A stretch of 25,778 bases of DNA from a virus (Duplodnaviria > Heunggongvirae > Uroviricota > Caudoviricetes): the IMG/VR virus record IMGVR_UViG_2718218136_000006; one strand, given 5' to 3'. The translations under genes and the position numbers were made by a program. The notes under the pieces are model-generated. The model was not told the DNA's origin, made no database searches, and was given only the letters and a program-made list of their open reading frames with translations. Of this stretch, positions 2,642-25,778 are shown piece by piece. The first letter of the stretch is position 1, and the number at the start of each line of letters is the position of its first letter.

Positions 2642-3171
2642 TGCTCTATCCCCCAACAGGCTAATGCGCTCTCCTGATCACGACGAATAACCTGACCGTA
2701 ACAGTTATTTGAACGAAGGCGGCAATCGCGCCCCCTGTCCTTAATCCACCAGCGAATCGCCTCGCAGGCACCTTTACGATCACCTGCATTCAGCCGCTTA
2801 TAAAATGTCGACGGAAAACACTTAGCGGGGCCAATGTTATAGGGACAAAATGACGCGATACCCGCTTTTTGTGGTTCGGTCAGTGTTACTTTAATATTGC
2901 GATCCACCCATGCCAGCGCCTTATCACGCTCAATGGCATTAACCTGATCGCATTTTTCCTTCGTCAGTGTCATGCCCGGAATAACAGGTTTACCATCTAC
3001 TATCGTGGCACCGCGACAGATGGTCCATATGCCGGAACCATCGCGGTATGCCGTAGTGTGGTTACCCTCTTTTTCATCCAGAAACTGGTCAAGTATCTCA
3101 GGAGCAGATGCGCCTGCTCCAATCAGCGCCAGAACGGCCGCTGACAGGCCGTATTTGATTTTTGCGTTCAT
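2638..3171 (-). CDS. SAR endolysin (phage lysozyme, signal-anchor-release type), 177 aa
   Basis: ATG 3169-3171; N-terminal Gly/Ala-rich weakly hydrophobic segment ([17 protein letters not shown]) followed by E-x8-D-x5-T lysozyme catalytic spacing ([16 protein letters not shown]). Confidence 0.85.
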
Positions 3172-3276
3172 GGATATTTATCAGGATTTATCGGTTTCTG
3201 AACCCTGGATATGTTTATCTGCCCCGGCCTGTTGAATCAGGCGGGGAAAAGGTAAATACAATCAAGAGGATTATTT

Positions 3277-4856: not shown

Positions 4857-4931
<75 letters not shown>

Positions 4932-4934
4932 ATA

Positions 4935-5010
<76 letters not shown>

Positions 5011-5363: not shown

Positions 5364-5906
5364 TCAAGCCGTTTTTTGAGCGAATGATTCTCGCATGGGA
5401 ATGTATAGCGCATACTCAGCAACGGCCAACCAATTAGCAATTCGCTTTTCGCATGTGCTAAAACACCACTCTGGGTGTGCATCATTTAGCAATTCAGCCA
5501 TTTTGCGTTTGGTCATCCCCCGCCCCTCATACCGTTGCCGAAGGACGCTAATCAATCCTGGATGCTCTGCCAGCACCTCACTTATGACCCGATCAATACA
5601 TAACGCCTCTGCATCAGTACAATGTGCCAGCCAGCTCTTTTGCTTACCGTTAATCATATCCCGCAAAAAAGCCTCAAGTTCAGACTTGTTCAGACCTGCT
5701 TTTTTCATCCTCCGGAGCGCCTCGTTAATTGCCGTTTTTGTCAGCTTTTTAGAGGCCAACAACTGGTTGAACATATTCCCCGTCTTACCGCCGCCAATAT
5801 ACGACCAGCGCCCCCACATGCGCAGTTTTCCCTGAATCCAGACACTTTCCAGCGTGGTGAGACGAAGGTGTTCCCCGCTTTTGCCTATATTTGTTGGGTA
5901 AATCAT
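5364..5906 (-). CDS. putative late-gene antiterminator Q-like protein, about 180 aa
   Basis: ORF track 5364..6026 trimmed to ATG 5904-5906, which overlaps the upstream gene stop (ATGA); W-G-x-W motif (MWGRW) near N-terminus as in Q-family proteins; position immediately upstream of terminator, tRNAs and S-R-Rz. Confidence 0.5.
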   Translation of the reverse strand: MIYPTNIGKSGEHLRLTTLESVWIQGKLRMWGRWSYIGGGKTGNMFNQLLASKKLTKTAINEALRRMKKAGLNKSELEAFLRDMINGKQKSWLAHCTDAEALCIDRVISEVLAEHPGLISVLRQRYEGRGMTKRKMAELLNDAHPEWCFSTCEKRIANWLAVAEYALYIPMRESFAQKTA

Positions 5907-6193
5907 AAATAACCTTCCTTTCTCCAGATTTCTTGCGTGCGAAAAACACCTTCTGCATGCATCAGGCGTAATTCTTCTTTGGTGTAATCGCTTGTTTTTA
6001 CCCGCCAGTCGATTAGATCGTGGCATGAGCTACAGGCTATCGCCGCCTGCATATCGTGTGGTTTTGTCGCTGTTCCGCACGTCCCCGCCAGCCTGTAATG
6101 CGCCAGCACAGAGGTTTCGGGATTGTGATTGCAGTAGCCAGGGATTCTGATCTGGCACATCTGGCCTTTAGCCGCTTTACGTAAATTCACCAT
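5903..6193 (-). CDS. YbcO-like (DUF1364) nin-region protein, 96 aa
   Basis: Pattern LRKAAKG..CQIRIPGYCNHNPETSVLAH recalled from DLP12 YbcO; start ATG 6191-6193 overlaps upstream stop (TAATG). Confidence 0.6.
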   Translation of the reverse strand: MVNLRKAAKGQMCQIRIPGYCNHNPETSVLAHYRLAGTCGTATKPHDMQAAIACSSCHDLIDWRVKTSDYTKEELRLMHAEGVFRTQEIWRKEGYL

Positions 6194-6792
6194 TACGCAA
6201 ACTCCAGTAGTTGTGCGGCCACATTTTCAATTTCCTCCTGAGAGGAGAATTTACGGAACAGAATCCAGTTCCACAGCACATTCAGTACAGATTTATAAAC
6301 CTGCTGAAACTCGACTTCGTCCATATTCGCAAACGCGATGGATTTCGCCCGACGCCCACGGCTACCATCAGGATAAAAATGCTCTGTGTAAAATCCGGCC
6401 TGAATGGTTACCCACTCGCGGAAAGCCTCAAACGACTTTAGCAATGCCGTATCCCGGGTTCTGCGTGTCGCAACGGTATTCAGATATTGCTCTGCGGCAC
6501 CACTCAGGGCTGGAGTATGTTCCCGACCTACTGATTCGCACAGGTAATCAACGAAGCCTGATACCAGTTCTCGTTCTCGAGGCGTGATCGCCCCACCGAT
6601 CGGAGTCCAGTAATCGAATCCCAGTTGCAGGAGTTTGAAAAAACGCTTGTGGAATGCATAGTTACGCACACGCTTAAAGTCTGCGTGTATCCACTCGCCT
6701 ATTTTGATTTGATGCAGAAAATCGCAACTCTCCGGCGTCGCCGGGAGAAGTAAACCAGAAGAAGTTTGTTTGACCAGTTGTATATGCGCCAT
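6193..6792 (-). CDS. hypothetical nin-region protein, 199 aa
   Basis: ATG 6790-6792 with GGAG upstream; long ORF, co-oriented and coupled to the downstream gene. Family not recognised with confidence. Confidence 0.55.
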   Translation of the reverse strand: MAHIQLVKQTSSGLLLPATPESCDFLHQIKIGEWIHADFKRVRNYAFHKRFFKLLQLGFDYWTPIGGAITPRERELVSGFVDYLCESVGREHTPALSGAAEQYLNTVATRRTRDTALLKSFEAFREWVTIQAGFYTEHFYPDGSRGRRAKSIAFANMDEVEFQQVYKSVLNVLWNWILFRKFSSQEEIENVAAQLLEFA

Positions 6793-7963: not shown

Positions 7964-8087
7964 TTAAGTAATTTCAGAGGTATCTATCACTTTCTCAGGA
8001 GTTGTAGATAACAATTCTTTCATACGCTGATCTTCGGGAGCACGAGAAGACAGGTGTTCTAAAAACTCACGCCATTGACGCTTTGCA
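7964..8087 (-). pseudogene. orphaned 3' end (37 codons plus stop) of the GHKL ATPase gene, cut off by IS10
   Basis: Reading across the 9-bp duplication, the ATPase frame continues without a stop for 37 codons (QWREFLEHLSSRAPEDQRMKELLSTTPEKVIDTSEIT) to TAA at 7964-7966. Confidence 0.7.
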
Positions 8088-9416
8088 CTGAGAGATCCCC
8101 TCATAATTTCCCCAAAGCGTAACCATGTGTGAATAAATTTTGAGCTAGTAGGGTTGCAGCCACGAGTAAGTCTTCCCTTGTTATTGTGTAGCCAGAATGC
8201 CGCAAAACTTCCATGCCTAAGCGAACTGTTGAGAGTACGTTTCGATTTCTGACTGTGTTAGCCTGGAAGTGCTTGTCCCAACCTTGTTTCTGAGCATGAA
8301 CGCCCGCAAGCCAACATGTTAGTTGAAGCATCAGGGCGATTAGCAGCATGATATCAAAACGCTCTGAGCTGCTCGTTCGGCTATGGCGTAGGCCTAGTCC
8401 GTAGGCAGGACTTTTCAAGTCTCGGAAGGTTTCTTCAATCTGCATTCGCTTCGAATAGATATTAACAAGTTGTTTGGGTGTTCGAATTTCAACAGGTAAG
8501 TTAGTTGCTAGAACCCATGGCTCCTTTGCCGACGCTGAGTAGATTTTAGGTGACGGGTGGTGACAATGAGTCCGTGTCGAGCGCTGATTTTTTCGGCCTT
8601 TAGAGCGAGATTTATACAATAGAATTTGGCATGAGATTGGATTGCTTTTAGTCAGCCTCTTATAGCCTAAAGTCTTTGAGTGACTAGATGACATATCATG
8701 TAAGTTGCTGATAGGTTTCCAGTTTTCCGCTCCTAGGTCTGCATATTGTACTTTTCCTCTTACTCGACTTAACCAGTACCAACCCAGCTTCTCAACGGAT
8801 TTATACCATGGCACTTTAAAGCCAGCATCACTGACAATGAGCGGTGTGGTGTTACTCGGTAGAATGCTCGCAAGGTCGGCTAGAAATTGGTCATGAGCTT
8901 TCTTTGAACATTGCTCTGAAAGCGGGAACGCTTTCTCATAAAGAGTAACAGAACGACCGTGTAGTGCGACTGAAGCTCGCAATACCATAAGTCGTTTTTG
9001 CTCACGAATATCAGACCAGTCAACAAGTACAATGGGCATCGTATTGCCCGAACAGATAAAGCTAGCATGCCAACGGTATACAGCGAGTCGCTCTTTGTGG
9101 AGGTGACGATTACCTAACAATCGGTCGATTCGTTTGATGTTATGTTTTGTTCTCGCTTTGGTTGGCAGGTTACGGCCAAGTTCGGTAAGAGTGAGAGTTT
9201 TACAGTCAAGTAATGCGTGGCAAGCCAACGTTAAGCTGTTGAGTCGTTTTAAGTGTAATTCGGGGCAGAATTGGTAAAGAGAGTCGTGTAAAATATCGAG
9301 TTCGCACATCTTGTTGTCTGATTATTGATTTTTCGCGAAACCATTTGATCATATGACAAGATGTGTATCTACCTTAACTTAATGATTTTGATAAAAATCA
9401 TTAGGGGATTCATCAG
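8088..9416 (-). mobile_element. IS10 copy 1 (1329 bp), flanked by 9-bp direct duplication CGCTTTGCA (8079-8087 and 9417-9425)
   Basis: Ends CTGAGAGATCCCCTCATAATTTCCCC (inside end) and ...TCATTAGGGGATTCATCAG (outside end) recalled as IS10 termini; exact 9-bp flanking repeat read from sequence. Confidence 0.95.
8101..9309 (-). CDS. IS10 transposase, 402 aa
   Basis: ORF track; protein MCELDILHDSLYQFCPELHLKRLNSL... recalled as the IS10/Tn10 transposase. Confidence 0.95.
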   Translation of the reverse strand: MCELDILHDSLYQFCPELHLKRLNSLTLACHALLDCKTLTLTELGRNLPTKARTKHNIKRIDRLLGNRHLHKERLAVYRWHASFICSGNTMPIVLVDWSDIREQKRLMVLRASVALHGRSVTLYEKAFPLSEQCSKKAHDQFLADLASILPSNTTPLIVSDAGFKVPWYKSVEKLGWYWLSRVRGKVQYADLGAENWKPISNLHDMSSSHSKTLGYKRLTKSNPISCQILLYKSRSKGRKNQRSTRTHCHHPSPKIYSASAKEPWVLATNLPVEIRTPKQLVNIYSKRMQIEETFRDLKSPAYGLGLRHSRTSSSERFDIMLLIALMLQLTCWLAGVHAQKQGWDKHFQANTVRNRNVLSTVRLGMEVLRHSGYTITREDLLVAATLLAQNLFTHGYALGKL

Positions 9417-11284
9417 CGCTTTGCATCAGACAGAAGGTCATCCCAAGTTAATGTATACATTTCTTGTTCTCTCAATGTTTTCAGTTTCATATTTAACGTT
9501 GCATTTCTCTTTAAAAAATCATCAGCAACTAGATAACCGGAAACTCGCTTGAATGGACTTCCTGTTGCAGAGTCTAAATAAACTCTGAAAGTATTAACAT
9601 ACTCCTCAAAGCGATTGATGTGATCTTTATCTATTTTCAGCCCTGGCCTCATGAATTCAAGTACAAGCAAATGTTCACCACTTGAAAGAACTAAGTCAAC
9701 CCTTCCTTTAAAGCTTGGATCGTGTTCAATGTCTGATTCTTTTGCTGCTTCTCTAGCGATATGCTGGACATTTTTCTCAATAGCATAAGTCTCCCATTTT
9801 GGAGCTATCAGCCAAGGATTCTTCGCAATATAGTCTCGAACAGCATTTTCTAATTCTTTAGTGCGTATTCTAGTCTCAAGACCACTTATAGTATCAAGCT
9901 TAGCTTTAACTGATTCTGCTGTGTGTAAAGCCTGAATTGTATTTGCTTCGATCAATATCTCAAGCAATTTCGTTTCATCCATATCAGGAACGGAAGCAAC
10001 GCTTCTTATAAGCTCTTTTAGACGCCCTCCCTCCCATGCAGTGAGGATAGAGTTGCCTATATGCCTAAATTGCTCTGCACCGATTTGTTGGATTGATGCA
10101 ATTCGTTTCAAAGCCATTATAACCGTTTTTTTCTCTACACCTAGTTTATCTAGCCTACTTCTGAAATCATCAATTTTACTTTCAATCAGTTTGGTTTTTT
10201 CATCTGCCCGCCGATCTTTCCAGATTTTTAATAATTCGCGAACACGTTTCTGTCCCCACTCTTCTAATTTGGCAAGGTGGTGACTACTCCAATTCAATCT
10301 TTGTCGTTCAGTAGAAATCACATCATCATTAAACTCATCCAAATAATCAGCAATTACAGCCCCTGTCATATATTCAGGACCATTTTGACTTGGCAACCCT
10401 CCAGTCAAGTTAAACATAAACGGCCTTTGTGCTAATTTTTTGTGAGCGTAAATCGAGATACCTTGCAACTCATCATCCTTGATTGTTTCTTTTAAGAAAA
10501 ACACTCTCCATTTTATCTCATAACCATCAACGATTTCTTTTCCATACCCCAAACTGTCAATCTCCGTAAGAGAATCAGGTTTTTCATCTACAGTATAATC
10601 TTTTGGAAAACTATATTCTGCAGTGGCAAGAAAATTTTCGACTGGCATGGGGGTATTATTAATACGAACTAAAAATTCATCGCCGCCAGAATTGATCGCA
10701 AACCTTCTCGCCATAGATGTAGCAAAAGAAGACTCATTTAACAATCTATTTATTTTCAATGACTTAAGTGTTACTGTTGTTCCATGATTTTCTTTTTCTA
10801 ATTCTGAAGGGCCTGTGCGGAAGGTCACATCAATAGCCATGCTTTCAGTTTTAACGTAGTCATCTGACGATCTAATCTTATTTATATCCAAAGTAAAACT
10901 AGTTTTTTCACCTGTTTCTTGGCTAGTAGTACAAATTTCTATAATCTCAGCAATACCAAAACCAGCAAACTTTCCGATACCTTTTCTTCCCATTAAGTCT
11001 CGATTGAATAATTTCGACTTCGCTACAGGATTATCTTTCCTTTTATCAAAACCAACCGTAAGAAATTTCTTTTGACATTCTTCAAATGTCATTCCAATAC
11101 CATTGTCTTTTATAACAATAGTTCTATTTTCATGCGTGGGTAGTGTAATATTAACTTCGGTTGCATCCGCGTCCCAAGCATTAGAAACCATTTCAGCTAT
11201 TGCTGCTGTTGGACTTTGATACATTTGAATACCTAAATGATCAATTATCCTACCATGAAAATTTAGAAATAGTTTATTATCCAT
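9413..11284 (-). CDS. MORC/MutL-like GHKL ATPase (HATPase_c-type N-terminus) with large C-terminal region; truncated to 623 aa by IS10, original about 660 aa
   Basis: Bergerat-fold motifs read directly: EMVSNAWDA (N box), IKDNGIGM (G1), GRKGIGKFAGFG (G2). ATG 11282-11284 overlaps MTase stop by 8 nt. Stop codon 9413-9415 lies inside the IS10 end. Confidence 0.75.
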   Translation of the reverse strand: MDNKLFLNFHGRIIDHLGIQMYQSPTAAIAEMVSNAWDADATEVNITLPTHENRTIVIKDNGIGMTFEECQKKFLTVGFDKRKDNPVAKSKLFNRDLMGRKGIGKFAGFGIAEIIEICTTSQETGEKTSFTLDINKIRSSDDYVKTESMAIDVTFRTGPSELEKENHGTTVTLKSLKINRLLNESSFATSMARRFAINSGGDEFLVRINNTPMPVENFLATAEYSFPKDYTVDEKPDSLTEIDSLGYGKEIVDGYEIKWRVFFLKETIKDDELQGISIYAHKKLAQRPFMFNLTGGLPSQNGPEYMTGAVIADYLDEFNDDVISTERQRLNWSSHHLAKLEEWGQKRVRELLKIWKDRRADEKTKLIESKIDDFRSRLDKLGVEKKTVIMALKRIASIQQIGAEQFRHIGNSILTAWEGGRLKELIRSVASVPDMDETKLLEILIEANTIQALHTAESVKAKLDTISGLETRIRTKELENAVRDYIAKNPWLIAPKWETYAIEKNVQHIAREAAKESDIEHDPSFKGRVDLVLSSGEHLLVLEFMRPGLKIDKDHINRFEEYVNTFRVYLDSATGSPFKRVSGYLVADDFLKRNATLNMKLKTLREQEMYTLTWDDLLSDAKR

Positions 11285-12325
11285 AATCCGCCTCGTTTTT
11301 AGTTATATGTTCTTTGATAAGTTCAGCATGATGCTTAATGAATTCAGGGGGCAATGCATTCCCTATCATCAAAGCAGCCTTGTCTTTACCAAATTGAATA
11401 GGAAAATAGTAATCACTCGGAAAAGTTTGTAATAATGCAGCCTCTCGAAGAGTTATTGCTCTATCTTGTTCAGGATGTAAAAAACGACCTTTTGAAGGAT
11501 TAGTACATCCACTCGTAATAGTTGGAGCTACATCATCCCACCTCATACGACCGTAAACATCGCGAAAACCATTTGGATATCGTTTATGACATGGCAGCCA
11601 ATACTCGTAAGGAAGTTGAGAGCGGCTTCCCCCATCCTTAGGAATAAGACTTATAATTTTTTTAACCTTCTCAGTTCTTCTTTCTAATATATTGTGCAGC
11701 GGATCATTGCTATTTTCAGGTCGAGCCAAATGGCCTATTGCATCGCGCACAGTTATTAAATTACTATTTTTTTGAGCACGAGTAAGCTCTCCGTATCGCG
11801 AAGCAAGTAGTACCATGCGCTTACGTCTTTGTGGCACACCAAATTTACTAGCATCTTCAATTAAAACTGAATTATCATCGATATGATAACCCAATTTCTT
11901 AAGCTCCGAAGTAAACATGTTTATTCGTTCGTCAAATGCCAAAGCTGGTACATTTTCAACCATTACAACTTTTGGAAAAAAGACTTTAACAAAATCTAAA
12001 AAATTAAAAATAAGTTCATTTCTCTCATCAAAGACAGCTACTGTTTTATTTTTTGTTCTTAACGAAGAAAATCCTTGACATGGTGGACAACCTGCCAACA
12101 AATCCAGTTCACCTTGCTGAATTTTTAATTGTTTCATTAATTCATCTGGTGATATATTTTTATATCCCCATTTATTAAGTTAACATCCGGATGGTTGATT
12201 CTATAGGTTTCAGATACAATAGCTTCTTTTTCGATTGCTGATATGACATCAAAGCCAGCCATTTTTAGACCAACTGTCAAACCACCAGCGCCACAAAAAA
12301 GATCAATTGCTTTCATTTTATGCAT
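11277..12325 (-). pseudogene. Dcm-family DNA (cytosine-5) methyltransferase, split by a -1 frameshift in an A5 run (T5 on plus strand at 12157-12161)
   Basis: 62-aa ORF carries motif I (DLFCGAGG) and GDIK; 286-aa ORF carries motif IV (PCQGFS), ENV, and C-terminal GNALPP. Adding one A restores a continuous GDIKNISPDEL...ELDLLAGCPPCQ reading. Confidence 0.8.
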
Positions 12326-14645: not shown

Positions 14646-15440
14646 TTACCCCCTGAAGCCTGGCGGGATCGCACTGTCCGGCAACGAGACGGTGTTAACC
14701 TGTCTGAGCAACGTCTCAGGCCTAACACCTTTCGGCGCGAACAAGCCCTGGTATTCATTGGCGATGCTATGTCGAATCACCTGCTCAGGGGTAAAACCCT
14801 GCTGGCGGAATTTTTCCAGTTCCCGTATCGCCCCGTTAGCGCCCTGCTCCGTTCGAATCGGTTTTCGCAATGCCTGCCTGAACCGGACCCACTCATGCCA
14901 GAGTGTTTCCGGCAACCAATCGGGCAACTCAATAGCCTCCGGCTCGAATTTTTTAGATGCTCGTTTTTGGCGAGGGGGATTTAGGGGGAGATCAGTATTT
15001 ATATCTTCCTCTTCCTCTTCCTCTTCCTCTGGTAACGCTTTTTGATCCGTTTGTGTAACGCTGGCAGCGTTACCTTTTCGTTTCAGTTCGCGTATTTTTG
15101 TAACCCTCTCGTTTGTAATCGCCCGTTTTTTAGAGCTTTTTCCGTTATGACGTTCAAAGTTAGGTAGAGAAAGCCCACCGTTATTTTCGACCAGCCATCC
15201 AACCTGAATTAACGCATCAGCAAAACCAGCCATAAAAGTGATGCGATCTATTGCACTTTTTGTAACGCCGCGAGCGTTACACTCTGCGTTACCGTCTATC
15301 ATTTGTTGATCCGCCCATGCCCAGAAGCGAATGACTTTCCCTAATGCGGCATCTGGATCAATATTCAGAATCTCAGCAAGCCTGAATATTTCCGGCTTAT
15401 CCGGCGTAATAACCTCGAGCTTTATCCAGTTTGAAGCCAT
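14646..15440 (-). CDS. ydaU: replication initiation-like protein YdaU (start uncertain: ATG 15438-15440 with AAGGTG, or TTG at 15518)
   Basis: ORF track 14646..15518; sequence and position recalled as Rac YdaU; contains poly-Glu tract. Confidence 0.7.
   Translation of the reverse strand: MASNWIKLEVITPDKPEIFRLAEILNIDPDAALGKVIRFWAWADQQMIDGNAECNARGVTKSAIDRITFMAGFADALIQVGWLVENNGGLSLPNFERHNGKSSKKRAITNERVTKIRELKRKGNAASVTQTDQKALPEEEEEEEEDINTDLPLNPPRQKRASKKFEPEAIELPDWLPETLWHEWVRFRQALRKPIRTEQGANGAIRELEKFRQQGFTPEQVIRHSIANEYQGLFAPKGVRPETLLRQVNTVSLPDSAIPPGFRG
15005..15030. repeat. hexanucleotide repeat (CTTCCT)x4, encoding an 8-residue poly-Glu tract in YdaU
   Basis: Directly read, in frame within ydaU. 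Confidence 0.9.
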
Positions 15441-15518
15441 ATTGTTTTCACCTTGTAACGCTGTAAGCGTTACATTTAACTGATACCGAACAAAACAGTC
15501 CGGCACGATTAATTTCAA

Positions 15519-15941
15519 TCAATGCACTACGACAGAATCGCTAGGAGAACCGCCGCCGCTGAAATGTGCTTTACGGTAAACGGCCTGGACTGCATCATCA
15601 TGCGCATCAATTGCCGTACTCAGTGCATCCTGTGCCGCCAGTAATGCACGGCGTTCCAGGGTATCGAAGATGCAGAGTCGGTGACGCAGCTCGCGAGGAA
15701 GAATTGCCAGAACCGCAGGGATCAGTTTCTGAATTTTTTCCCTTTGCGCATTCGTTTCACCTTTCAACCAACGATGATAGATATTCTGCTGATTGTTCCA
15801 GTCCTTGCCTGGTACCAGGGGCAATTCGCCGCCCCCCTGGCGCAGATATTCTTCAGTAATTGCGTTAGCGACCCACGCCTGCCCTTTTTCGGCTGCCAGG
15901 GCTAACAACACTGATTCGATGTGCTCATGCTTGATTTTCAT
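15519..15941 (-). CDS. ydaT: YdaT, 140 aa (reported toxic partner of YdaS under RacR control)
   Basis: ORF track; start ATG 15939-15941 overlaps ydaS stop (ATGA); sequence recalled as Rac YdaT. Confidence 0.8.
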   Translation of the reverse strand: MKIKHEHIESVLLALAAEKGQAWVANAITEEYLRQGGGELPLVPGKDWNNQQNIYHRWLKGETNAQREKIQKLIPAVLAILPRELRHRLCIFDTLERRALLAAQDALSTAIDAHDDAVQAVYRKAHFSGGGSPSDSVVVH

Positions 15942-16192
15942 GAATCAACTCCCATCAGCTTTTTCGTAGTAGTTTTATTTCTGCCAATAGTTAAAATTGC
16001 ATCGGCAGAAAATAATCCGTTTGATGCATGAGCGATTTTTTCAGCGTAATTTGTTTCGCCGGTATATTCTGTGCGAGGCAATTTTCCGTTATCCATCCAT
16101 TTGTAGATTGCTCTTTGGCTGACACCACAAACGTCGGCCACAACAGAAACGCGAACAGTTTTGATTACATCTTCAAGTGTTTTCTGGTTCAT
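15938..16192 (-). CDS. ydaS: YdaS, Cro-like HTH protein (84 aa from ATG 16190-16192; ORF track extends to 16264)
   Basis: GAGGGTG Shine-Dalgarno before ATG at 16192; HTH segment VADVCGVSQRAIYKW; divergent from racR. Confidence 0.75.
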   Translation of the reverse strand: MNQKTLEDVIKTVRVSVVADVCGVSQRAIYKWMDNGKLPRTEYTGETNYAEKIAHASNGLFSADAILTIGRNKTTTKKLMGVDS

Positions 16193-16216
16193 ATCACCCT
16201 CACAATGTGAACTTTG

Positions 16217-16247
16217 AGTACATGCTATAACAGAACTGACAGTACAT
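16217..16247. promoter_or_regulatory. candidate operator pair in the racR-ydaS divergent control region (two AGTACAT heptamers, 16217-16223 and 16241-16247)
   Basis: Directly read repeats in the 80-bp intergenic region between divergent repressor and cro-like genes. Confidence 0.4.
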
Positions 16248-16271
16248 TCAAGAGCGAATATCATTGAACTT

Positions 16272-16610
16272 ATGGTTCATGAAGATAAAGCGCGTAAAGA
16301 GTTCGCCAGTAGGCTTGCGCTAGCCTGTGAAAACGCTGGTTATGAACAACATGGAAGGCAGGCAGAAATTGCCCGTCGAATGAAATTAACACCAAAAGCG
16401 GTTAGCAAATGGTTTAATGGTGAAACAATTCCTCGCCGAGAGAAATTAAGGGAATTAGCAACACTCATTGGAACAACACCAACCTATCTTTTGGGAGAGG
16501 ATACAGAAGAAAGTGGACAGATACGTTTCTATCAGGAGTTAAATCCAAGACAAAAATCATCATTGACCTTCTGGACGAGCTCCCTGACAGTGAGACAGAT
16601 GAACTTTTAA
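16272..16610 (+). CDS. racR: RacR prophage repressor (XRE-type HTH); 112 aa as read, possibly frameshifted near 16552-16556 with a displaced C-terminal frame to 16689
   Basis: ORF track; HTH GRQAEIARRMKLTPKAVSKWFNG; see findings for the alternative frame. Confidence 0.75.
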   Translation: MVHEDKARKEFASRLALACENAGYEQHGRQAEIARRMKLTPKAVSKWFNGETIPRREKLRELATLIGTTPTYLLGEDTEESGQIRFYQELNPRQKSSLTFWTSSLTVRQMNF

Positions 16611-16765
16611 AAACTCTTGAGGAGAAAAAACAGAAGTACAATGCAATTTACGAAGAGTTAGCACGAAAGAAAAAACAAAAAGCCTCTTAAACCAGCATAA
16701 ATCCGGTAGCGTCCCCCTCCGGGTTTGTGCTTCACTTTATCCCGTCTCATTTTTTTATACATAAA

Positions 16766-16810
16766 ATGTACTTAAAGTACTTTACAATGATGAACACAAA
16801 GTACATTATA
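16766..16810 (+). promoter_or_regulatory. candidate early-left promoter with overlapping operators upstream of ydaG
   Basis: TTTACA (16781-16786), 17-18 bp spacer, CATTAT/ATTATA (16804-16810); palindrome GTACTT-A-AAGTAC (16768-16780) and further AGTACAT copies at 16766-16772 (reverse) and 16800-16806. Confidence 0.35.
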
Positions 16811-16983
16811 TACCTACCAACCCACCCCGCCCCACAGAACGCCGGGCAATACTTCGAGTTACCAGGCAGTGGTCAGGGGTTAAGTAGCCAGCCCGAGGCG
16901 TATGAACATGACGGCAGTTGTTGATTGATACAAAGCGCAGTAGATAAAACGTTCCGCCACCCGGCGTTAAGGGGAGAGATAAG

Positions 16984-17118
16984 ATGGTGCATTACGAAGT
17001 AGTTCAGTATTTGATGGATTGTTGCGATATCACTTACAGCCAAGCTGTACAGGCTCTACGCAGCAACGACTGGGATCTCTGGCAGGCAGAAGTCGCTATA
17101 CGTAGCAACAAGATGTGA
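16984..17118 (+). CDS. ydaG: YdaG, 44 aa (below ORF-track cutoff)
   Basis: ATG 16984 behind GGGGAGAG; translation MVHYEVVQYLMDCCDITYSQAVQALRSNDWDLWQAEVAIRSNKM read by hand. Confidence 0.65.
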   Translation: MVHYEVVQYLMDCCDITYSQAVQALRSNDWDLWQAEVAIRSNKM

Positions 17119-17128
17119 GATTCGCAAA

Positions 17129-17284
17129 ATGCAAAAAATCGACCTCGGCAACAACGAATCCCTGGTGTGCGGCGTGTTCCCCAACCAGGATGGAACGTTC
17201 ACTGCCATGACGTATACCAAAAGCAAAACATTTAAAACCGAAACTGGTGCGCGCCGATGGTTGGAGAAGCACACAGTAAGCTAA
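17129..17284 (+). CDS. ydaF: YdaF, 51 aa (below ORF-track cutoff)
   Basis: ATG 17129; translation MQKIDLGNNESLVCGVFPNQDGTFTAMTYTKSKTFKTETGARRWLEKHTVS read by hand; 3' end overlaps sieB 3' end by 4 bp. Confidence 0.65.
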   Translation: MQKIDLGNNESLVCGVFPNQDGTFTAMTYTKSKTFKTETGARRWLEKHTVS

Positions 17285-17769
17285 CGATTAAAACGTCTAC
17301 TCCTGCTGTTCCAGAATAACTTCATAAAATGGGAGTATTTTTCGGTGACGAGATAATAAGAACAGTTTGCGCTATCACTCTGATGTTGAATGATGCCCTT
17401 CCGTTCTAATTTTTTCATAACCGGGTTACGGCAAGGAGAAGTGATAATAAGATTTCCTGTTTTAAGGAAATCTTTAAATACAGCGATTTCTTTCTCAGAT
17501 AAACGAAGCAATACTCGTTGCTCTGGTAGTAATGAATAATGCTTTTGAATATGTGCTCGCAATCTTGAGAAGGAAATGGCGACCACGAAAGAAAAGGCAA
17601 AAACGATAATCTGAAAGAGCCAAGGTATTTCAGTATAAGCATTGAATGCGACAGTAAACTCTTTCGGTATCAGCCAGAGAGTGAGACCAAAAATGATAAT
17701 CGTATACATAAGTCTTTCGAGTGGCTCGTTAGCAAAAAATTTCAACAATGGAGTAAATACATCCAACAT
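17281..17769 (-). CDS. sieB: SieB superinfection exclusion protein, 162 aa
   Basis: ORF track 17281..17892 trimmed to ATG 17767-17769 (MLDVFTPLL...); two hydrophobic segments; recalled as Rac SieB. Confidence 0.8.
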   Translation of the reverse strand: MLDVFTPLLKFFANEPLERLMYTIIIFGLTLWLIPKEFTVAFNAYTEIPWLFQIIVFAFSFVVAISFSRLRAHIQKHYSLLPEQRVLLRLSEKEIAVFKDFLKTGNLIITSPCRNPVMKKLERKGIIQHQSDSANCSYYLVTEKYSHFMKLFWNSRSRRFNR

Positions 17770-18210
17770 ATCAATAACTCTCAACTGTAAGGGTATTGAA
17801 ATGTTAACACAAGCTCTCGCTGTAGGGGTATAGCCGAGACCACCGAAGCCCGGAGGTGGTGAAATAAAACCGGGCACAACACGAAGGCGCATTTCCGATA
17901 TCCATAAAGAGTCGGTCTTGTCTGTTAAATTTAAATGGTGGGAGTGCGCCTCCGGTTGTAAATAACGACATTGCTGTGTGTAGTCCTGGCGGCATCAGTT
18001 TTTTTCTTGAAGTTCGGCTGATGTCCGCCCTTTTTAAAGTGAATTTTGTGATGCGGTGAATGCGGCTAAGCGCACGTGGCACAGTTAAAAGTCATGTTAG
18101 TCCTTATTGGTTTGGGTGGGAAAGCCGATTGTAATTGTTAACTGGTTGCAGTCACCTGGAGGCACCAGGCACCGCATCAACAAAGTTCATTTGTAAAAAT
18201 GGAGATAATT

Positions 18211-18432
18211 ATGATTGCACATCACTTCGGAACTGATGAAATACCACGTCAGTGTGTGACTCCTGGCGATTATGTTCTTCATGAAGGCCGGACATATATT
18301 GCCTCGGCAAACAATATTAAAAAGCGAAAACTATATATTCGTAACCTGACCACAAAAACATGCATTACTGACCGCATGATTAAAGTCTTCCTCGGTCGTG
18401 ATGGTTTACCTGTAAAGGCGGAGTCATGGTGA
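18211..18432 (+). CDS. kilR: KilR (FtsZ-targeting killing protein), 73 aa
   Basis: ORF track 18199..18432 trimmed to ATG 18211 behind GGAGA; sequence [16 protein letters not shown]... recalled as KilR. Confidence 0.85.
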
Positions 18433-18602
18433 TGACTAAGAAAATAAAATGTGCTTACCACCTTTGCAAAAAAGACGTTGAAGAAAGCAAAGCTATTGAA
18501 AGAATGCTTCACTTCATGCACGGGATTTTATCAAAAGACGAACCGAGAAAATATTGCAGTGAAGCTTGTGCCGAAAAAGACCAGATGGCACATGAACTTT
18601 AA
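18432..18602 (+). CDS. ydaE: YdaE, 56 aa, Cys-rich small protein (below ORF-track cutoff)
   Basis: ATG 18432 (alternative ATG 18426) after AAGGCGGAG; translation [18 protein letters not shown]...KYCSEACAEKDQMAHEL read by hand. Confidence 0.65.
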   Translation: MTKKIKCAYHLCKKDVEESKAIERMLHFMHGILSKDEPRKYCSEACAEKDQMAHEL

Positions 18603-18676
18603 TTAATTGACTATTCGAAACTGAATTTATGCCAGAAATGGCAGGTATTCGCTCAACCTTAATTAAGGAGAAAAAC

Positions 18677-18952
18677 ATGATTACCAATTATGAAGCCACT
18701 GTTGTAACTACCGATGACATTGTTCACGAGGTGAATCTGGAAGGAAAGCGCATTGGCTACGTAATTAAAACAGAAAATAAAGAAACCCCATTCACTGTGG
18801 TTGATATCGATGGTCCATCAGGCAACGTAAAAACACTTGATGAAGGTGTCAAAAAAATGTGCCTGGTGCATATCGGAAAGAATCTGCCCACAGAAAAAAA
18901 AGCCGAATTTCTGGCAACTCTAATTGCAATGAAATTAAAAGGTGAAATCTGA
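18677..18952 (+). CDS. racC: RacC, 91 aa
   Basis: ORF track 18629..18952 trimmed to ATG 18677 behind AAGGAG; sequence MITNYEATVVTTDDIVHEV... recalled as RacC. Confidence 0.85.
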   Translation: MITNYEATVVTTDDIVHEVNLEGKRIGYVIKTENKETPFTVVDIDGPSGNVKTLDEGVKKMCLVHIGKNLPTEKKAEFLATLIAMKLKGEI

Positions 18953-19053
18953 AAGAAATAGCCTGCGTATGACGCAGGCTATGAACAGTGTGTATCCGGC
19001 AAGATCATTCACTGAACAAAACGAATTTTAATCTGAGTTGAGGTTAAAAAACA

Positions 19054-21654
19054 ATGAGCACAAAACCACTCTTCCTGTTACGGAAAGCGAAAAAATCATC
19101 CGGTGAACCTGACGTCGTCCTGTGGGCAAGCAACGATTTTGAATCGACCTGTGCCACTCTGGACTACCTGATCGTTAAGTCAGGTAAAAAACTGAGCAGC
19201 TATTTTAAAGCTGTTGCCACGAATTTTCCTGTCGTTAATGACCTGCCCGCTGAAGGTGAGATCGATTTTACCTGGAGTGAACGCTATCAACTCAGCAAAG
19301 ACTCCATGACATGGGAACTAAAACCGGGAGCAGCACCAGACAACGCTCACTATCAAGGCAATACCAACGTCAACGGCGAAGACATGACTGAGATTGAGGA
19401 GAATATGCTACTCCCAATTTCTGGCCAGGAACTGCCCATTCGTTGGCTTGCTCAACACGGCAGCGAAAAACCGGTAACGCACGTTTCACGCGACGGACTC
19501 CAGGCATTACACATTGCTCGGGCTGAAGAACTACCGGCTGTTACTGCCCTGGCTGTTTCCCACAAAACCAGCCTGCTCGACCCGCTGGAAATTCGCGAAC
19601 TCCACAAACTGGTTCGTGACACTGACAAAGTTTTCCCTAATCCTGGTAATTCAAACCTGGGACTGATAACTGCTTTTTTCGAAGCATACCTGAACGCTGA
19701 CTACACCGATCGAGGACTGCTGACAAAAGAGTGGATGAAGGGTAATCGTGTTTCACACATCACTCGCACGGCTTCCGGTGCTAATGCTGGCGGCGGAAAC
19801 CTCACCGATCGCGGCGAAGGTTTCGTACACGATCTGACGTCACTGGCGCGCGACGTAGCCACTGGCGTACTGGCCCGTTCAATGGATCTGGACATCTATA
19901 ACCTTCATCCGGCACACGCTAAACGCATTGAGGAAATTATCGCTGAAAATAAACCGCCCTTTTCTGTTTTCCGCGACAAATTCATCACCATGCCTGGCGG
20001 GCTGGATTATTCCCGCGCCATCGTGGTTGCGTCCGTAAAAGAAGCACCAATTGGGATCGAGGTCATCCCCGCGCACGTCACTGAATATCTGAACAAAGTA
20101 CTGACTGAAACCGATCATGCCAACCCTGATCCGGAAATCGTGGATATTGCCTGCGGTCGCTCCTCTGCCCCGATGCCGCAGCGAGTAACAGAAGAAGGAA
20201 AACAGGATGATGAAGAAAAACCGCAACCATCTGGAACAACGGCAGTTGAACAGGGAGAGGCTGAAACAATGGAACAGGACGCAACTGAACATCATCAGGA
20301 CACGCAGCCGCTGGATGCTCAGTCACAGGTAAATTCTGTTGATGCGAAATATCAGGAACTGCGGGCAGAACTCCATGAAGCCCGGAAAAACATTCCATCA
20401 AAAAATCCTGTCGATGCCGATAAATTGCTTGCTGCATCACGTGGTGAATTTGTTGACGGAATTAGCGACCCGAACGATCCGAAATGGGTAAAGGGGATCC
20501 AGACTCGCGATTGTGTGTACCAGAACCAGCCAGAAACGGAAAAAACCAGCCCGGATATGAATCAACCTGAGCCAGTAGTGCAACAGGAACCGGAAATAGC
20601 CTGCAATGCCTGCGGCCAGACTGGCGGGGATAACTGCCCTGACTGTGGTGCGGTGATGGGCGACGCAACATACCAGGAAACATTCGATGAAGAGAGTCAG
20701 GTTGAAGCTAAGGAAAATGATCCGGAGGAAATGGAAGGCGCTGAACATCCGCACAATGAGAATGCTGGCAGCGATCCGCATCGCGATTGCAGTGATGAAA
20801 CTGGCGAAGTCGCAGATCCCGTAATCGTAGAAGACATAGAGCCAGGTATTTATTACGGAATTTCGAATGAGAATTACCACGCGGGTCCCGGTATCAGTAA
20901 GTCTCAGCTCGATGACATTGCTGATACTCCGGCACTATATTTGTGGCGTAAAAATGCCCCCGTGGACACCACAAAGACAAAAACGCTCGATTTAGGAACT
21001 GCTTTCCACTGCCGGGTACTTGAACAGGAAGAATTCAGTAACCGCTTTATCGTAGCACCTGAATTTAACCGCCGTACAAACGCCGGAAAAGAAGAAGAGA
21101 AAGCGTTTCTGATGGAATGCGCAAGCACAGGAAAAACGGTTATCACTGCGGAAGAAGGCCGGAAAATTGAACTCATGTATCAAAGCGTTATGGCTTTGCC
21201 GCTGGGGCAATGGCTTGTTGAAAGCGCCGGACACGCTGAATCATCAATTTACTGGGAAGATCCTGAAACAGGAATTTTGTGTCGGTGCCGTCCGGACAAA
21301 ATTATCCCTGAATTTCACTGGATCATGGACGTGAAAACTACGGCGGATATTCAACGATTCAAAACCGCTTATTACGACTACCGCTATCACGTTCAGGATG
21401 CATTCTACAGTGACGGTTATGAAGCACAGTTTGGAGTGCAGCCAACTTTCGTTTTTCTGGTTGCCAGCACAACTATTGAATGCGGACGTTATCCGGTTGA
21501 AATTTTCATGATGGGCGAAGAAGCAAAACTGGCAGGTCAACAGGAATATCACCGCAATCTGCGAACCCTGTCTGACTGCCTGAATACCGATGAATGGCCA
21601 GCTATTAAGACATTATCACTGCCCCGCTGGGCTAAGGAATATGCAAATGACTAA
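19054..21654 (+). CDS. recE: RecE exonuclease VIII, 866 aa, intact
   Basis: ORF track; length and sequence recalled as Rac RecE; 3' end overlaps recT start. Confidence 0.95.
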
Positions 21655-22456
21655 GCAACCACCAATCGCAAAAGCCGATCTGCAAAAAACTCAGGGAAAC
21701 CGTGCACCAGCAGCAGTTAAAAATAGCGACGTGATTAGTTTTATTAACCAGCCATCAATGAAAGAGCAACTGGCAGCAGCTCTTCCACGCCATATGACGG
21801 CTGAACGTATGATCCGTATCGCCACCACAGAAATTCGTAAAGTTCCGGCGTTAGGAAACTGTGACACTATGAGTTTTGTCAGTGCGATCGTACAGTGTTC
21901 ACAGCTCGGACTTGAGCCAGGTAGCGCCCTCGGTCATGCATATTTACTGCCTTTTGGTAATAAAAACGAAAAGAGCGGTAAAAAGAACGTTCAGCTAATC
22001 ATTGGCTATCGCGGCATGATTGATCTGGCTCGCCGTTCTGGTCAAATCGCCAGCCTGTCAGCCCGTGTTGTCCGTGAAGGTGACGAGTTTAGCTTCGAAT
22101 TTGGCCTTGATGAAAAGTTAATACACCGCCCGGGAGAAAACGAAGATGCCCCGGTTACCCACGTCTATGCTGTCGCAAGACTGAAAGACGGAGGTACTCA
22201 GTTTGAAGTTATGACGCGCAAACAGATTGAGCTGGTGCGCAGCCTGAGTAAAGCTGGTAATAACGGGCCGTGGGTAACTCACTGGGAAGAAATGGCAAAG
22301 AAAACGGCTATTCGTCGCCTGTTCAAATATCTGCCCGTATCAATTGAGATCCAGCGTGCAGTATCAATGGATGAAAAGGAACCACTGACAATCGATCCTG
22401 CAGATTCCTCTGTATTAACCGGGGAATACAGTGTAATCGATAATTCAGAGGAATAA
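21647..22456 (+). CDS. recT: RecT single-strand annealing protein, 269 aa
   Basis: ORF track 21590..22456 trimmed to ATG 21647 ([13 protein letters not shown]...), overlapping the last codons of recE. Confidence 0.95.
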
Positions 22457-22512
22457 TTCAGCCTGGCGGTGTAATGCACCGCCAACTTGAAATATTTTTT
22501 ATGAGAAAAATT

Positions 22513-22707
22513 ATGAGATATGACAATGTTAAACCATGTCCATTTTGTGGTTGTCCATCAGTAACGGTGAAAGTCATTTCAGGATATTACCGAGCGAAGT
22601 GTAACGGATGCGAATCCCGAACCGGTTATGGTGGAAGTGAAAGAGAAGCACTCGAAAGATGGAATAAACGAACCACTGGAAATAATAACGGAGGTGTTCA
22701 TGTATAA
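22513..22707 (+). CDS. ralR: RalR (Lar) restriction-alleviation protein, 64 aa
   Basis: ORF track 22474..22707 trimmed to ATG 22513 (MRYDNVKPCPFCGC...); Cys-rich zinc-ribbon-like pattern. Confidence 0.8.
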   Translation: MRYDNVKPCPFCGCPSVTVKVISGYYRAKCNGCESRTGYGGSEREALERWNKRTTGNNNGGVHV

Positions 22708-22888
22708 AATTACCGCTACTATTGAAAAGGAAGGTGGCACTCCTACTAACTGGACAAGATATTCAAAATCTAAACTAACGAAATCAGAATGCGAAAAAAT
22801 GCTCTCAGGTAAAAAAGAAGCAGGCGTTTCCAGAGAGCAGAAAGTAAAACTGATAAATTTTAATTGCGAGAAACTTCAGTCCTCGTGA
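22700..22888 (+). CDS. ydaC: YdaC, 62 aa
   Basis: ATG 22700 behind GGAGG, overlapping ralR end by 8 nt; ORF track 22628..22888. Confidence 0.65.
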   Translation: MYKITATIEKEGGTPTNWTRYSKSKLTKSECEKMLSGKKEAGVSREQKVKLINFNCEKLQSS

Positions 22889-22920
22889 ATTGCATTGTAT
22901 TCAAATTAAAACTTCATAGC

Positions 22921-22936
22921 TGATTATTAATAATCA
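22921..22936. repeat. perfect 16-bp palindrome TGATTATTAATAATCA upstream of xisR
   Basis: Directly read; lies 50 bp upstream of the excisionase start. Confidence 0.7.
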
Positions 22937-22987
22937 ACATCGGGCGTCAATTTCAGTCTAACATTGGCGCCTGCCAGAGGTGATGCG

Positions 22988-23203
22988 ATGGCACAAGTAA
23001 TCTTTAATGAAGAGTGGATGGTTGAATACGGCCTGATGCTTCGCACTGGTCTGGGGGCCAGACAAATTGAAGCATACCGCCAGAACTGTTGGGTGGAGGG
23101 CTTCCACTTCAAACGAGTATCTCCTTTAGGTAAGCCAGACAGCAAACGAGGGATTATCTGGTACAACTATCCAAAGATAAATCAGTTTATCAAAGACTCA
23201 TGA
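22988..23203 (+). CDS. xisR: XisR excisionase, 71 aa
   Basis: ORF track 22964..23203 (TTG) trimmed to ATG 22988 behind GAGGTG; stop overlaps intR start region. Confidence 0.8.
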
Positions 23204-23204
23204 T

Positions 23205-23640
23205 ATGTCTAAATTACCAACAGGTGTCGAGATTAGAGGTAGATACATTCGCATCTGGTTCATGTTTCGAGGAAAACGATGTCGGGAAACATTAAAAGGC
23301 TGGGAGATTACAAACAGTAATATTAAAAAGGCCGGAAATTTAAGAGCGCTGATAGTTCATGAAATAAACTCCGGTGAATTTGAGTATTTAAGACGTTTTC
23401 CCCAGTCCAGCACTGGGGCAAAAATGGTGACAACGAGAGTCATAAAAACGTTCGGAGAGCTTTGTGATATCTGGACAAAAATTAAAGAGACAGAGTTAAC
23501 AACAAACACAATGAAGAAAACGAAATCACAATTAAAAACACTCAGAATAATAATTTGTGAAAGTACCCTGATATCACATATTCGTTATAGCGATATCTTA
23601 AACTACCGGAATGAACTGCTGCATGGAGAAACGCTTTACC
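23205..23640 (+). pseudogene. intR: intR integrase, 5' fragment (145 codons), interrupted by IS10
   Basis: ATG 23205; frame runs into IS10 at 23641 and terminates after 11 IS-encoded codons; arm-binding-type N-terminus. Confidence 0.9.
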
Positions 23641-24969
23641 CTGAGAGATCCCCTCATAATTTCCCCAAAGCGTAACCATGTGTGAATAAATTTTGAGCTA
23701 GTAGGGTTGCAGCCACGAGTAAGTCTTCCCTTGTTATTGTGTAGCCAGAATGCCGCAAAACTTCCATGCCTAAGCGAACTGTTGAGAGTACGTTTCGATT
23801 TCTGACTGTGTTAGCCTGGAAGTGCTTGTCCCAACCTTGTTTCTGAGCATGAACGCCCGCAAGCCAACATGTTAGTTGAAGCATCAGGGCGATTAGCAGC
23901 ATGATATCAAAACGCTCTGAGCTGCTCGTTCGGCTATGGCGTAGGCCTAGTCCGTAGGCAGGACTTTTCAAGTCTCGGAAGGTTTCTTCAATCTGCATTC
24001 GCTTCGAATAGATATTAACAAGTTGTTTGGGTGTTCGAATTTCAACAGGTAAGTTAGTTGCTAGAACCCATGGCTCCTTTGCCGACGCTGAGTAGATTTT
24101 AGGTGACGGGTGGTGACAATGAGTCCGTGTCGAGCGCTGATTTTTTCGGCCTTTAGAGCGAGATTTATACAATAGAATTTGGCATGAGATTGGATTGCTT
24201 TTAGTCAGCCTCTTATAGCCTAAAGTCTTTGAGTGACTAGATGACATATCATGTAAGTTGCTGATAGGTTTCCAGTTTTCCGCTCCTAGGTCTGCATATT
24301 GTACTTTTCCTCTTACTCGACTTAACCAGTACCAACCCAGCTTCTCAACGGATTTATACCATGGCACTTTAAAGCCAGCATCACTGACAATGAGCGGTGT
24401 GGTGTTACTCGGTAGAATGCTCGCAAGGTCGGCTAGAAATTGGTCATGAGCTTTCTTTGAACATTGCTCTGAAAGCGGGAACGCTTTCTCATAAAGAGTA
24501 ACAGAACGACCGTGTAGTGCGACTGAAGCTCGCAATACCATAAGTCGTTTTTGCTCACGAATATCAGACCAGTCAACAAGTACAATGGGCATCGTATTGC
24601 CCGAACAGATAAAGCTAGCATGCCAACGGTATACAGCGAGTCGCTCTTTGTGGAGGTGACGATTACCTAACAATCGGTCGATTCGTTTGATGTTATGTTT
24701 TGTTCTCGCTTTGGTTGGCAGGTTACGGCCAAGTTCGGTAAGAGTGAGAGTTTTACAGTCAAGTAATGCGTGGCAAGCCAACGTTAAGCTGTTGAGTCGT
24801 TTTAAGTGTAATTCGGGGCAGAATTGGTAAAGAGAGTCGTGTAAAATATCGAGTTCGCACATCTTGTTGTCTGATTATTGATTTTTCGCGAAACCATTTG
24901 ATCATATGACAAGATGTGTATCTACCTTAACTTAATGATTTTGATAAAAATCATTAGGGGATTCATCAG
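23641..24969 (-). mobile_element. IS10 copy 2 (1329 bp), flanked by 9-bp direct duplication CGCTTTACC (23632-23640 and 24970-24978)
   Basis: Same termini as copy 1; 9-bp flanking repeat read from sequence; same orientation as copy 1. Confidence 0.95.
23654..24862 (-). CDS. IS10 transposase, 402 aa
   Basis: ORF track; protein identical to the copy-1 transposase. Confidence 0.95.
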   Translation of the reverse strand: MCELDILHDSLYQFCPELHLKRLNSLTLACHALLDCKTLTLTELGRNLPTKARTKHNIKRIDRLLGNRHLHKERLAVYRWHASFICSGNTMPIVLVDWSDIREQKRLMVLRASVALHGRSVTLYEKAFPLSEQCSKKAHDQFLADLASILPSNTTPLIVSDAGFKVPWYKSVEKLGWYWLSRVRGKVQYADLGAENWKPISNLHDMSSSHSKTLGYKRLTKSNPISCQILLYKSRSKGRKNQRSTRTHCHHPSPKIYSASAKEPWVLATNLPVEIRTPKQLVNIYSKRMQIEETFRDLKSPAYGLGLRHSRTSSSERFDIMLLIALMLQLTCWLAGVHAQKQGWDKHFQANTVRNRNVLSTVRLGMEVLRHSGYTITREDLLVAATLLAQNLFTHGYALGKL

Positions 24970-25778
24970 CGCTTTACCTGGATAATCCAAGATCCAACAA
25001 AAAAGGAAGAACCGTGCGCACAGTTGATAACTATATCGCCCTGCTCTGTTCGCTGTTACGTTTTGCGTATCAGTCGGGATTTATATCAACCAAACCATTT
25101 GAAGGAGTAAAAAAATTACAGCGAAACAGAATAAAGCCTGATCCGTTATCTAAAACAGAATTCAATGCATTAATGGAAAGTGAAAAAGGACAGAGCCAGA
25201 ACATGTGGAAATTTGCAGTTTACTCAGGACTTCGTCACGGGGAACTGGCAGCTCTGGCGTGGGAGGATGTGGATCTCGAAAAGGGAATAGTGAATGTCAG
25301 AAGAAACCTGACGATACTTGATATGTTCGGTCCCCCAAAAACAAATGCCGGGATCCGGACAGTAACACTACTGCAGCCTGCTCTTGAAGCACTGAAGGAG
25401 CAATACAAACTGACCGGGCATCATCGCAAAAGCGAAATCACCTTTTATCATCGGGAGTACGGCAGAACCGAAAAGCAAAAACTGCATTTTGTTTTCATGC
25501 CCAGGGTGTGTAACGGAAAACAAAAACCTTATTACTCGGTAAGCAGTTTGGGGGCAAGGTGGAATGCAGCAGTAAAACGTGCTGGTATTCGCCGCCGTAA
25601 TCCGTACCATACGCGGCATACTTTTGCCTGCTGGCTGTTGACGGCAGGAGCGAACCCGGCATTTATAGCCAGCCAAATGGGGCATGAAACTGCGCAGATG
25701 GTGTATGAAATTTACGGTATGTGGATTGATGACATGAACGACGAACAGATAGCCATGTTGAATGCGCGGTTATCATAG
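24970..25778 (+). pseudogene. intR: intR integrase, 3' fragment with tyrosine-recombinase catalytic region
   Basis: Frame resumes in register after the duplicated 9 bp (CTG at 24978-24980); catalytic-region motifs HTRHTFACWLL and ...EIYGMW; stop at 25776-25778. Confidence 0.9.

Follow-up and report, generated by a model that had tools for sequence, protein, structure and literature searches.

An IS10 insertion splits the integrase gene intR of a Rac-type cryptic prophage and likely abolishes Int-dependent excision without stabilising the region

The DNA analysed here, referred to below as the window, is a stretch of 25,778 nucleotides whose first base lies within a prophage and whose last base ends the stop codon of the integrase gene intR (position 25778). 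Direct reading of the sequence places the intR start at ATG 23205, 1 nt past the stop codon of the excisionase gene xisR, and the gene is divided into two parts by an IS10 element (Table 1). The first-pass annotation held that the integrase frame runs for 145 codons, enters IS10 at 23641 and resumes in register after a duplicated 9 bp, and these statements proved exact to the base. The native codons end at 23639, codon 146 spans the junction, and IS10 together with one repeat amounts to 1338 bp, or 446 × 3, which leaves the 3’ part in register. Past the junction, the intR frame gains 11 IS10-encoded codons before it reaches a TAA at 23673-23675, giving an ORF of 156 aa in total, and it meets another 22 in-frame stops (23 altogether) across the remainder of the element. 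Joining 23205-23640 to 24979-25778 restores a gene of 1236 nt, which corresponds to 411 aa and a stop codon. An uninterrupted IntR frame is not found in the window, as the break falls after codon 145.

Table 1. Features of the split intR locus, of the adjoining recombination genes and of the second IS10 copy (positions in the window)
Feature	Position	Strand	Remarks
IS10 copy A	8088..9416	-	identical to copy B in all 1329 bases, same orientation
9-bp duplication of copy A, CGCTTTGCA	8079-8087 and 9417-9425	.	its own duplication
RNA-OUT of copy A	9302-9371		Rfam
recE	19054-21654	+	866 aa, intact; 3 substitutions compared with K-12, equal length
recT	21647-22456	+	269 aa, intact; protein identical to K-12
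xisR (excisionase)	22988..23203	+	71 aa, intact; PF06806, E=6e-21; protein identical to K-12 XisR
intR 5’ fragment	23205..23640	+	145 native codons and 1 nt; arm-binding domain and about half of the core-binding domain
9-bp target-site duplication CGCTTTACC, left copy	23632..23640	.	abuts IS10
IS10 copy B	23641..24969	-	1329 bp; inside end at 23641, outside end at 24969
IS10 transposase gene	23654-24862	-	402 aa, DDE, antisense to intR
RNA-OUT antisense RNA	24855..24924	+	Rfam RF00240; transcribed toward the intR 3’ fragment
9-bp target-site duplication CGCTTTACC, right copy	24970..24978	.	abuts IS10
intR 3’ fragment	24979..25778	+	codons 146-411 and stop; remaining core-binding domain and entire catalytic domain
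Internal ORF	25014..25778	+	254 aa, GTG start; possible catalytic-domain-only product

The element within intR (copy B) had been named IS10, and it has the defining features of that element, its target being the one weak point. Its length of 1329 bp, imperfect inverted repeats, 9-bp duplication, RNA-OUT, and 402-aa DDE transposase starting 108 nt from the outside end are those of IS10 (IS10-Right of Tn10, IS4 family), which the NCBI annotation pipeline labels ‘ISVsa5 family’. The termini read CTGAGAGATCCCCTCATAATTT on the left and, as the reverse complement, CTGATGAATCCCCTAATGATTTT on the right; they agree at 17 of the first 23 positions, in line with imperfect terminal inverted repeats, of which some 22 bp are expected for IS10. 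From 23641 onwards the sequence reads CTGAGAGATCCCCTCATAATTTCCCC, the IS10 inside end. In profile searches the transposase matched PF01609 (E=1.5e-24) and the NCBIfam IS4-family model NF033591 (404 bits, with a cut-off of 152), while RNA-OUT matched RF00240 over its full length at 98.8 bits (gathering score 41). Copy B is 100% identical over 1329 bp to IS10 copies on Salmonella and E. coli plasmids, and shows six single-nucleotide differences (99.5% identity) from the IS10 adjoining srlD in DH5alpha. This IS10 is complete and apparently competent for transposition. A TAAAAT -10 hexamer is located at 24842-24847. A consensus promoter scan of the window called neither pOUT nor pIN, and the presence of pOUT is proposed here because of the RNA-OUT covariance match and the identity of the element as IS10. 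Unlike Tn10, neither copy in the window is accompanied by a tetracycline-resistance module, and therefore both are regarded as free IS10 rather than as Tn10.

The 9-bp target CGCTTTACC is present exactly twice in the 25.8-kb window, with both copies bordering IS10, and the chance of encountering a matching 9-mer at a given pair of junctions is about 4e-6. Compared with the IS10 target consensus sequences taken from PMC4574204, it fits four of the six specified positions of the classical consensus NGCTNAGCN, including a perfect GCT half-site, and it deviates from the relaxed consensus NRCNNNGYN by one mismatch. The same site is found empty, with a single copy of the 9 bp, in E. coli CH4797, a complete relative whose uninterrupted intR is base-for-base identical to the restored intR of the window.

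The identification of the interrupted gene as intR is borne out by the restored protein, which matches K-12 IntR at 409 of 411 residues, the two differences being P122L and L221M. It carries an arm-binding domain (PF12167) at residues 5-69, a weak match to PF14659 at residues 82-138, and a tyrosine-recombinase catalytic domain (PF00589) at residues 205-391. The latter lies entirely downstream of the insertion, in keeping with the claim that the catalytic region is encoded 3’ of the IS. Likewise, the statement that the excisionase and recE/recT remain intact held for all three genes (Table 1). The recombination arm from 16815 to 25778, with IS10 not counted, is 99.4% identical to that of K-12 Rac, which is integrated at ttcA, and the gene order intR-xisR-rcbA-ralR-recT-recE is conserved. 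Beyond this arm, the two elements diverge. Immunity and replication genes differ in part from those of K-12 Rac, the element of the window has a restriction-modification-like pair as well as lysis genes and two tRNA genes, and the end carrying the tail-fibre gene, pinR and ynaE is missing; moreover, intR is intact in K-12.

The wider context of the element can be read from its relatives. With its two IS10 copies taken out, the whole window matches a prophage of about 22 kb in eleven complete E. coli genomes at approximately 100% identity, and both IS10 sites are empty there. In CH4797, the element sits between uspF/sitA’ and ttcA, and comprises trkG, lysis genes, two tRNA genes, a restriction-modification-like pair, and replication and immunity genes, followed by sieB, kilR, recET, ralR, xisR and intR; head and tail genes are absent. 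In identical relatives, ttcA follows intR and starts 51 bp after it. A search for an att repeat inside the window found none, while comparison with K-12 and CH4797 places the att cores just outside it, some 950 bp ahead of its first base and some 60 bp past its last. By its gene content, the element is a Rac-type cryptic prophage remnant of about 24 kb without virion genes. As such, it is only curing that would be at stake for this remnant, and not the production of phage.

A simple cut-and-paste transposition of IS10 very probably explains the locus: the element would have entered intR of a Rac prophage residing at ttcA, duplicating the 9-bp target CGCTTTACC, with a loss of IntR-mediated excision that does not stabilise the region. 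The window also contains a second IS10, copy A (Table 1), which has removed the last 37 codons of a gene for a 660-aa GHKL-ATPase, restriction-enzyme-like protein. The two copies are identical and directly oriented, 15,553 bp apart, and assemblies often misplace such repeats, which raises the question of whether both copies and the DNA between them arrived as one composite transposon, or whether the IS10 in intR was put there by the assembly. Taken together, these two readings are barely credible. Perfect 9-bp duplications of different sequence border copy A (CGCTTTGCA) and copy B (CGCTTTACC), the two outer flanks differ from one another, and the intervening DNA is native prophage DNA, colinear with and approximately 100% identical to the prophage in the 11 genomes that lack both copies. 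A Tn10-like composite transposon is excluded on these grounds. An artefact is made unlikely by the left junction, which occurs independently in the NCBI draft assembly GCA_002514385.1, where it yields the same 156-aa product on a contig that runs 158 bp into IS10; furthermore, the junction of copy A was seen in three sequencing runs. A self-splicing intron or intein was rejected as well, since an Rfam scan returned no intron family and the insert is an IS10 with stops in the intR frame. We found nothing in support of a rejoining of the intR halves at the RNA or protein level, IS10 being a plain DDE transposon.

What, then, would be left of the integrase after such an insertion? Profiles of XerC and XerD align with IntR residues 150-383 (model positions 55-267) and 95-391 (model positions 10-271), and the alignment to the solved Tn1549 integrase begins with chain residue 57 opposite IntR residue 150. 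Together with the start of the catalytic Pfam domain at residue 205, these alignments indicate that the break after residue 145 splits the core-binding domain itself, in its middle, rather than separating two domains, so that neither fragment should be a working recombinase. At most, the operon would now yield the 156-aa fragment, with the arm-binding domain and half of the core-binding domain but none of the catalytic residues, and the 3’ part would receive neither a promoter nor a start of its own from the operon.

The 3’ part may nonetheless be expressed in another way. Copy B is oriented so that its outside end, which carries pOUT and RNA-OUT, points toward the intR 3’ fragment and onward to ttcA, and PMC9330008, citing Simons et al. 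1983, describes some pOUT transcripts of IS10 as reading into neighbouring genes. Read-through into the intR 3’ fragment and ttcA is therefore possible at this locus. In the open frame 3’ of IS10, GTG 25014 is the earliest start codon, with a good Shine-Dalgarno-like AAGGAAG (25003-25009) 4 nt upstream of it, and gene callers choose this internal start even where intR is intact; a 254-aa protein consisting of the catalytic domain only could be made from it. It might then be argued that the 156-aa N-terminal fragment and this pOUT-driven catalytic fragment associate and still excise the prophage. Such a functional reconstitution of the integrase is very unlikely in our view, as the break lies within the core-binding domain, residues 146-157 would be missing from both products, and the N-terminal fragment ends in 11 foreign residues. 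In addition, we are aware of no tyrosine integrase that has been rebuilt from fragments of this kind.

With the integrase split by a simple insertion, IntR-catalysed recombination between attL and attR would be lost despite an intact XisR. This loss of Int-dependent excision is likely, by analogy with lambda-type systems, in which excision requires Int plus Xis (PMC6379469; this is also established knowledge). K-12 Rac, whose Int, Xis and att sites are nearly the same, excises at low frequency under the control of XisR, and the excised DNA cannot replicate and is hence lost (PMC4632033, PMC11014345). For prophages without an active integrase, excision is undetectable (PMC4632033). In the literature we came across neither an intR-knockout test for Rac nor any work on this strain, and we infer the requirement for IntR from lambda-type systems and from over-expression experiments.

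It is also conceivable that the insertion is irrelevant to mobility, either because the integrase of another Rac-like prophage acts in trans, or because excision had already been lost by other means. Neither of the att sites is part of the window, nor is the remainder of the genome; structural genes are missing from what is already a cryptic remnant, and intR-like sequences occur in 2918 of 5426 complete genomes, at two places in some of them. We nevertheless consider this unlikely. The median number of intR places per complete genome is one, cross-activity between integrases demands closely matching arm and core sites (PMC6379469), and CH4797, which is 100% identical, retains both att cores with the same sequence as in the excision-proficient K-12 Rac. 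PMC6379469 counts the disruption of a recombinase gene by a mobile element among the ways in which lysogeny becomes irreversible, and like the ‘grounded’, i.e. excision-defective, prophages, the present element has its recombinase gene disrupted by an IS; we infer the same state here. For annotation, this means that intR is best recorded as a pseudogene split by IS10, in a prophage that is cryptic and probably excision-defective. Furthermore, excision serves Rac as an escape route when its repressor RacR fails (PMC11014345, PMC4632033), and a loss of excision would remove this escape from the YdaS/YdaT toxin of Rac, which operates in K-12 (PMC11014345).

Whether an excision-defective prophage is also a permanent one is a different matter. 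The first-pass annotation concluded that the element is probably fixed in the chromosome. The loss of Int-dependent excision on which this was based is a reasonable reading, but fixation is only partly supported, given the second IS10, the deletion seen in a relative described below, and the possibility of an integrase acting in trans. Two direct repeats of 1.3 kb at a distance of 15.5 kb are a standard substrate for deletion. Through RecA-dependent recombination or through the action of transposase, the 14.2-kb interval between the IS10 copies may be lost, and with it the methyltransferase gene, the replication and immunity genes, kilR, recET, ralR/ralA and xisR. Having a second, identical IS10 in direct orientation would therefore favour deletion, and does not make the region stable. 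In this respect the element differs from plain ‘grounded’ prophages, as the same IS10 copies also open a route to large deletions.

Two relatives illustrate what may follow. TUM12357, from chicken meat, carries an IS10 with the right flank CGCTTTACCTGGATAATCC at the same intR site, including CGCTTTACC. Here IS10 lies in the opposite orientation, with its inside end abutting the intR 3’ part. It differs from the IS10 of the window at 4 nt, all in the outside end (positions 24, 25, 27 and 47 are T, A, C and A in the window, versus G, G, A and G in TUM12357), and its intR 3’ part shows 5 SNPs. These differences make the insertion in TUM12357 independent of that in the window. The left flank of this IS10 is located in trkG (at what would be window position 1731), without a matching duplication, and about 22 kb of Rac is deleted. 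In Z1323CEC0004, IS10 joins a truncated recT to a truncated xisR. Both cases suggest that IS10 in this arm of Rac accompanies the loss of prophage DNA and not its preservation, and that an IS10 insertion leads to such loss as readily as to fixation. An IS in the integrase gene may thus be better read as a step toward deletion than toward fixation.

The reuse of one site invites a broader, more tentative proposal, which we hold to be doubtful but not far-fetched: CGCTTTACC and the 40 bp around it could constitute a recurrent IS target that drives the domestication of Rac in the wild, with Int-dependent curing being lost before IS-mediated deletion takes over, and with pOUT also transcribing the catalytic fragment of IntR and ttcA. 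The preference for this target is based on two independent events only, those of the window allele and of TUM12357. Rac is known to alter the tRNA-thiolation enzyme encoded by ttcA; if the proposal holds, the activity of pOUT would change the expression of this enzyme. For the remainder, IS10, intR and the Rac family are each already known, as are ordinary prophage decay and a grounded type of outcome, and the current understanding is unchanged. Only two points are mildly new, namely that one 9-bp target was hit repeatedly and that these hits go along with large deletions.

A megablast with the left junction against 5426 complete E. coli genomes returned no match covering the junction, and exact junction patterns, among them a degenerate one that allowed for either orientation of IS10, gave 0 hits in viral, metagenome and species-representative genome collections. 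The intR::IS10 allele is rare or absent in these viral, metagenome and species-representative collections, and a literature search on IS10 together with intR found nothing relevant. The apparent best hit of the megablast, Origami2-DE3, turned out to be another rearrangement, in which the cut in intR lies elsewhere and is followed by 55 bp from the inside end of IS10. With the draft assembly mentioned above, the intR::IS10 allele does already exist in a public assembly. A look-up of the 254-aa ORF mostly returned loci with an intact intR, and only two contigs (L019 and L020) had other IS ends.

The IS10 element of E. coli TUM12357 occupies exactly the same intR target (CGCTTTACC) as the copy that splits intR in the window, and lies in the opposite orientation. 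Through it, trkG (window position 1731) is now connected to the 3' part of intR, and ~22 kb of Rac is missing at this IS10. The two elements also differ in isoform: at positions 24, 25, 27 and 47 from the outside end, which lie within or beside the element's terminal region and the 3' portion of RNA-OUT, the window carries T, A, C and A, as does the DH5alpha copy, and the TUM12357 element carries G, G, A and G.

Rearrangements linked to IS10 were also found in two other E. coli genomes. In Z1323CEC0004, where intR is intact, IS10 joins a cut-off recT (window position 22248) to a cut-off xisR (window position 23037); ralR/ralA have been lost there together with the DUF1187 gene. The structure in Origami2-DE3 is a different Tn10/IS10-related rearrangement with its breakpoint within intR: the gene is broken after window-equivalent 25323 and fused to 55 bp from the inside end of IS10, beyond which follows sequence adjoining entD. 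Furthermore, two gut metagenome contigs (L019 and L020) terminate in ends of multicopy IS3-family elements inserted in intR, with junctions at window-equivalent ~25008/25009 and ~24986/24987. These lie ~30 bp and ~8 bp, respectively, past the right-hand copy of the IS10 target repeat, which places them ~5 and ~25 nt before GTG 25014. Both contigs came from a look-up that favoured this stretch of intR, so that any clustering of IS ends here is tentative.

This same GTG affects how intR is annotated. At the comparison loci L011-L018 the intR DNA is intact, yet the recorded call consists only of the 254-aa C-terminal ORF starting at the internal GTG, leaving 471 nt of the gene uncalled. Presumably, gene callers are drawn to AAGGAAG, a strong Shine-Dalgarno inside the gene, rather than to the weak one that precedes the true ATG. 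intR is therefore under-annotated in many public records.

The second IS10 of the window, identical to the copy in intR, deprives the gene for a GHKL-ATPase of 660 aa of its final 37 codons. The ATPase is recognised by PF13589 and by the PADLOC 'Type II restriction enzyme' model (1e-52). An intact gene for a Dcm-type cytosine methyltransferase adjoins the cut ATPase gene, so the insertion struck the restriction gene and spared the methylase. Three unrelated sequencing runs contain the same shortened product of 623 aa, and in one of these runs it lies in a different Rac background (recE ~96.5% identical). Its occurrence in that differing background suggests that this site, too, may be a recurrent IS10 target.

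Coordinates of features in the window and at the comparison loci
Feature	Location	Strand	Remarks
IS10 of E. coli TUM12357	L009, NZ_CP134370.1 2681343-2687695; locus 1694-3022		
Second IS10 with repeats	window 8079-9425		adjoining genes 7965-12317, minus strand
Variable IS10 outside-end positions 24, 25, 27, 47	window ~24923-24946 and ~9370-9393		
IS10 of E. coli Z1323CEC0004	L010, NZ_CP148483.1; locus ~1940-3275		
intR breakpoint in E. coli Origami2-DE3	L001, NZ_CP084529.1; locus 5865-6700		
IS3-family element end in intR	L019:1-125		gut metagenome contig ERZ918076
IS3-family element end in intR	L020:1-52		gut metagenome contig ERZ28662153
Intact intR, under-called (example)	L011:5530-6765		
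RalA antitoxin sRNA, full-length	window 22706-22884	minus	Rfam RF02694, 220 bits; opposite ralR
Two prophage-borne tRNA genes	window 4860-5010	minus	annotated Gly, Thr in CH4797

Megablast of the immunity region (14876-16815) against K-12 Rac gave no match to racR/ydaS; instead, the window carries a different HTH gene pair there, while a ydaT-type toxin gene is kept (92.8% identical to K-12). The arms flanking this differing region are 94-99% identical to K-12, a pattern of typical lambdoid mosaicism. Relative to the otherwise identical CH4797 prophage, the window has a 1-bp indel at ~4318, in the stretch that separates the tRNA genes from the holin gene.
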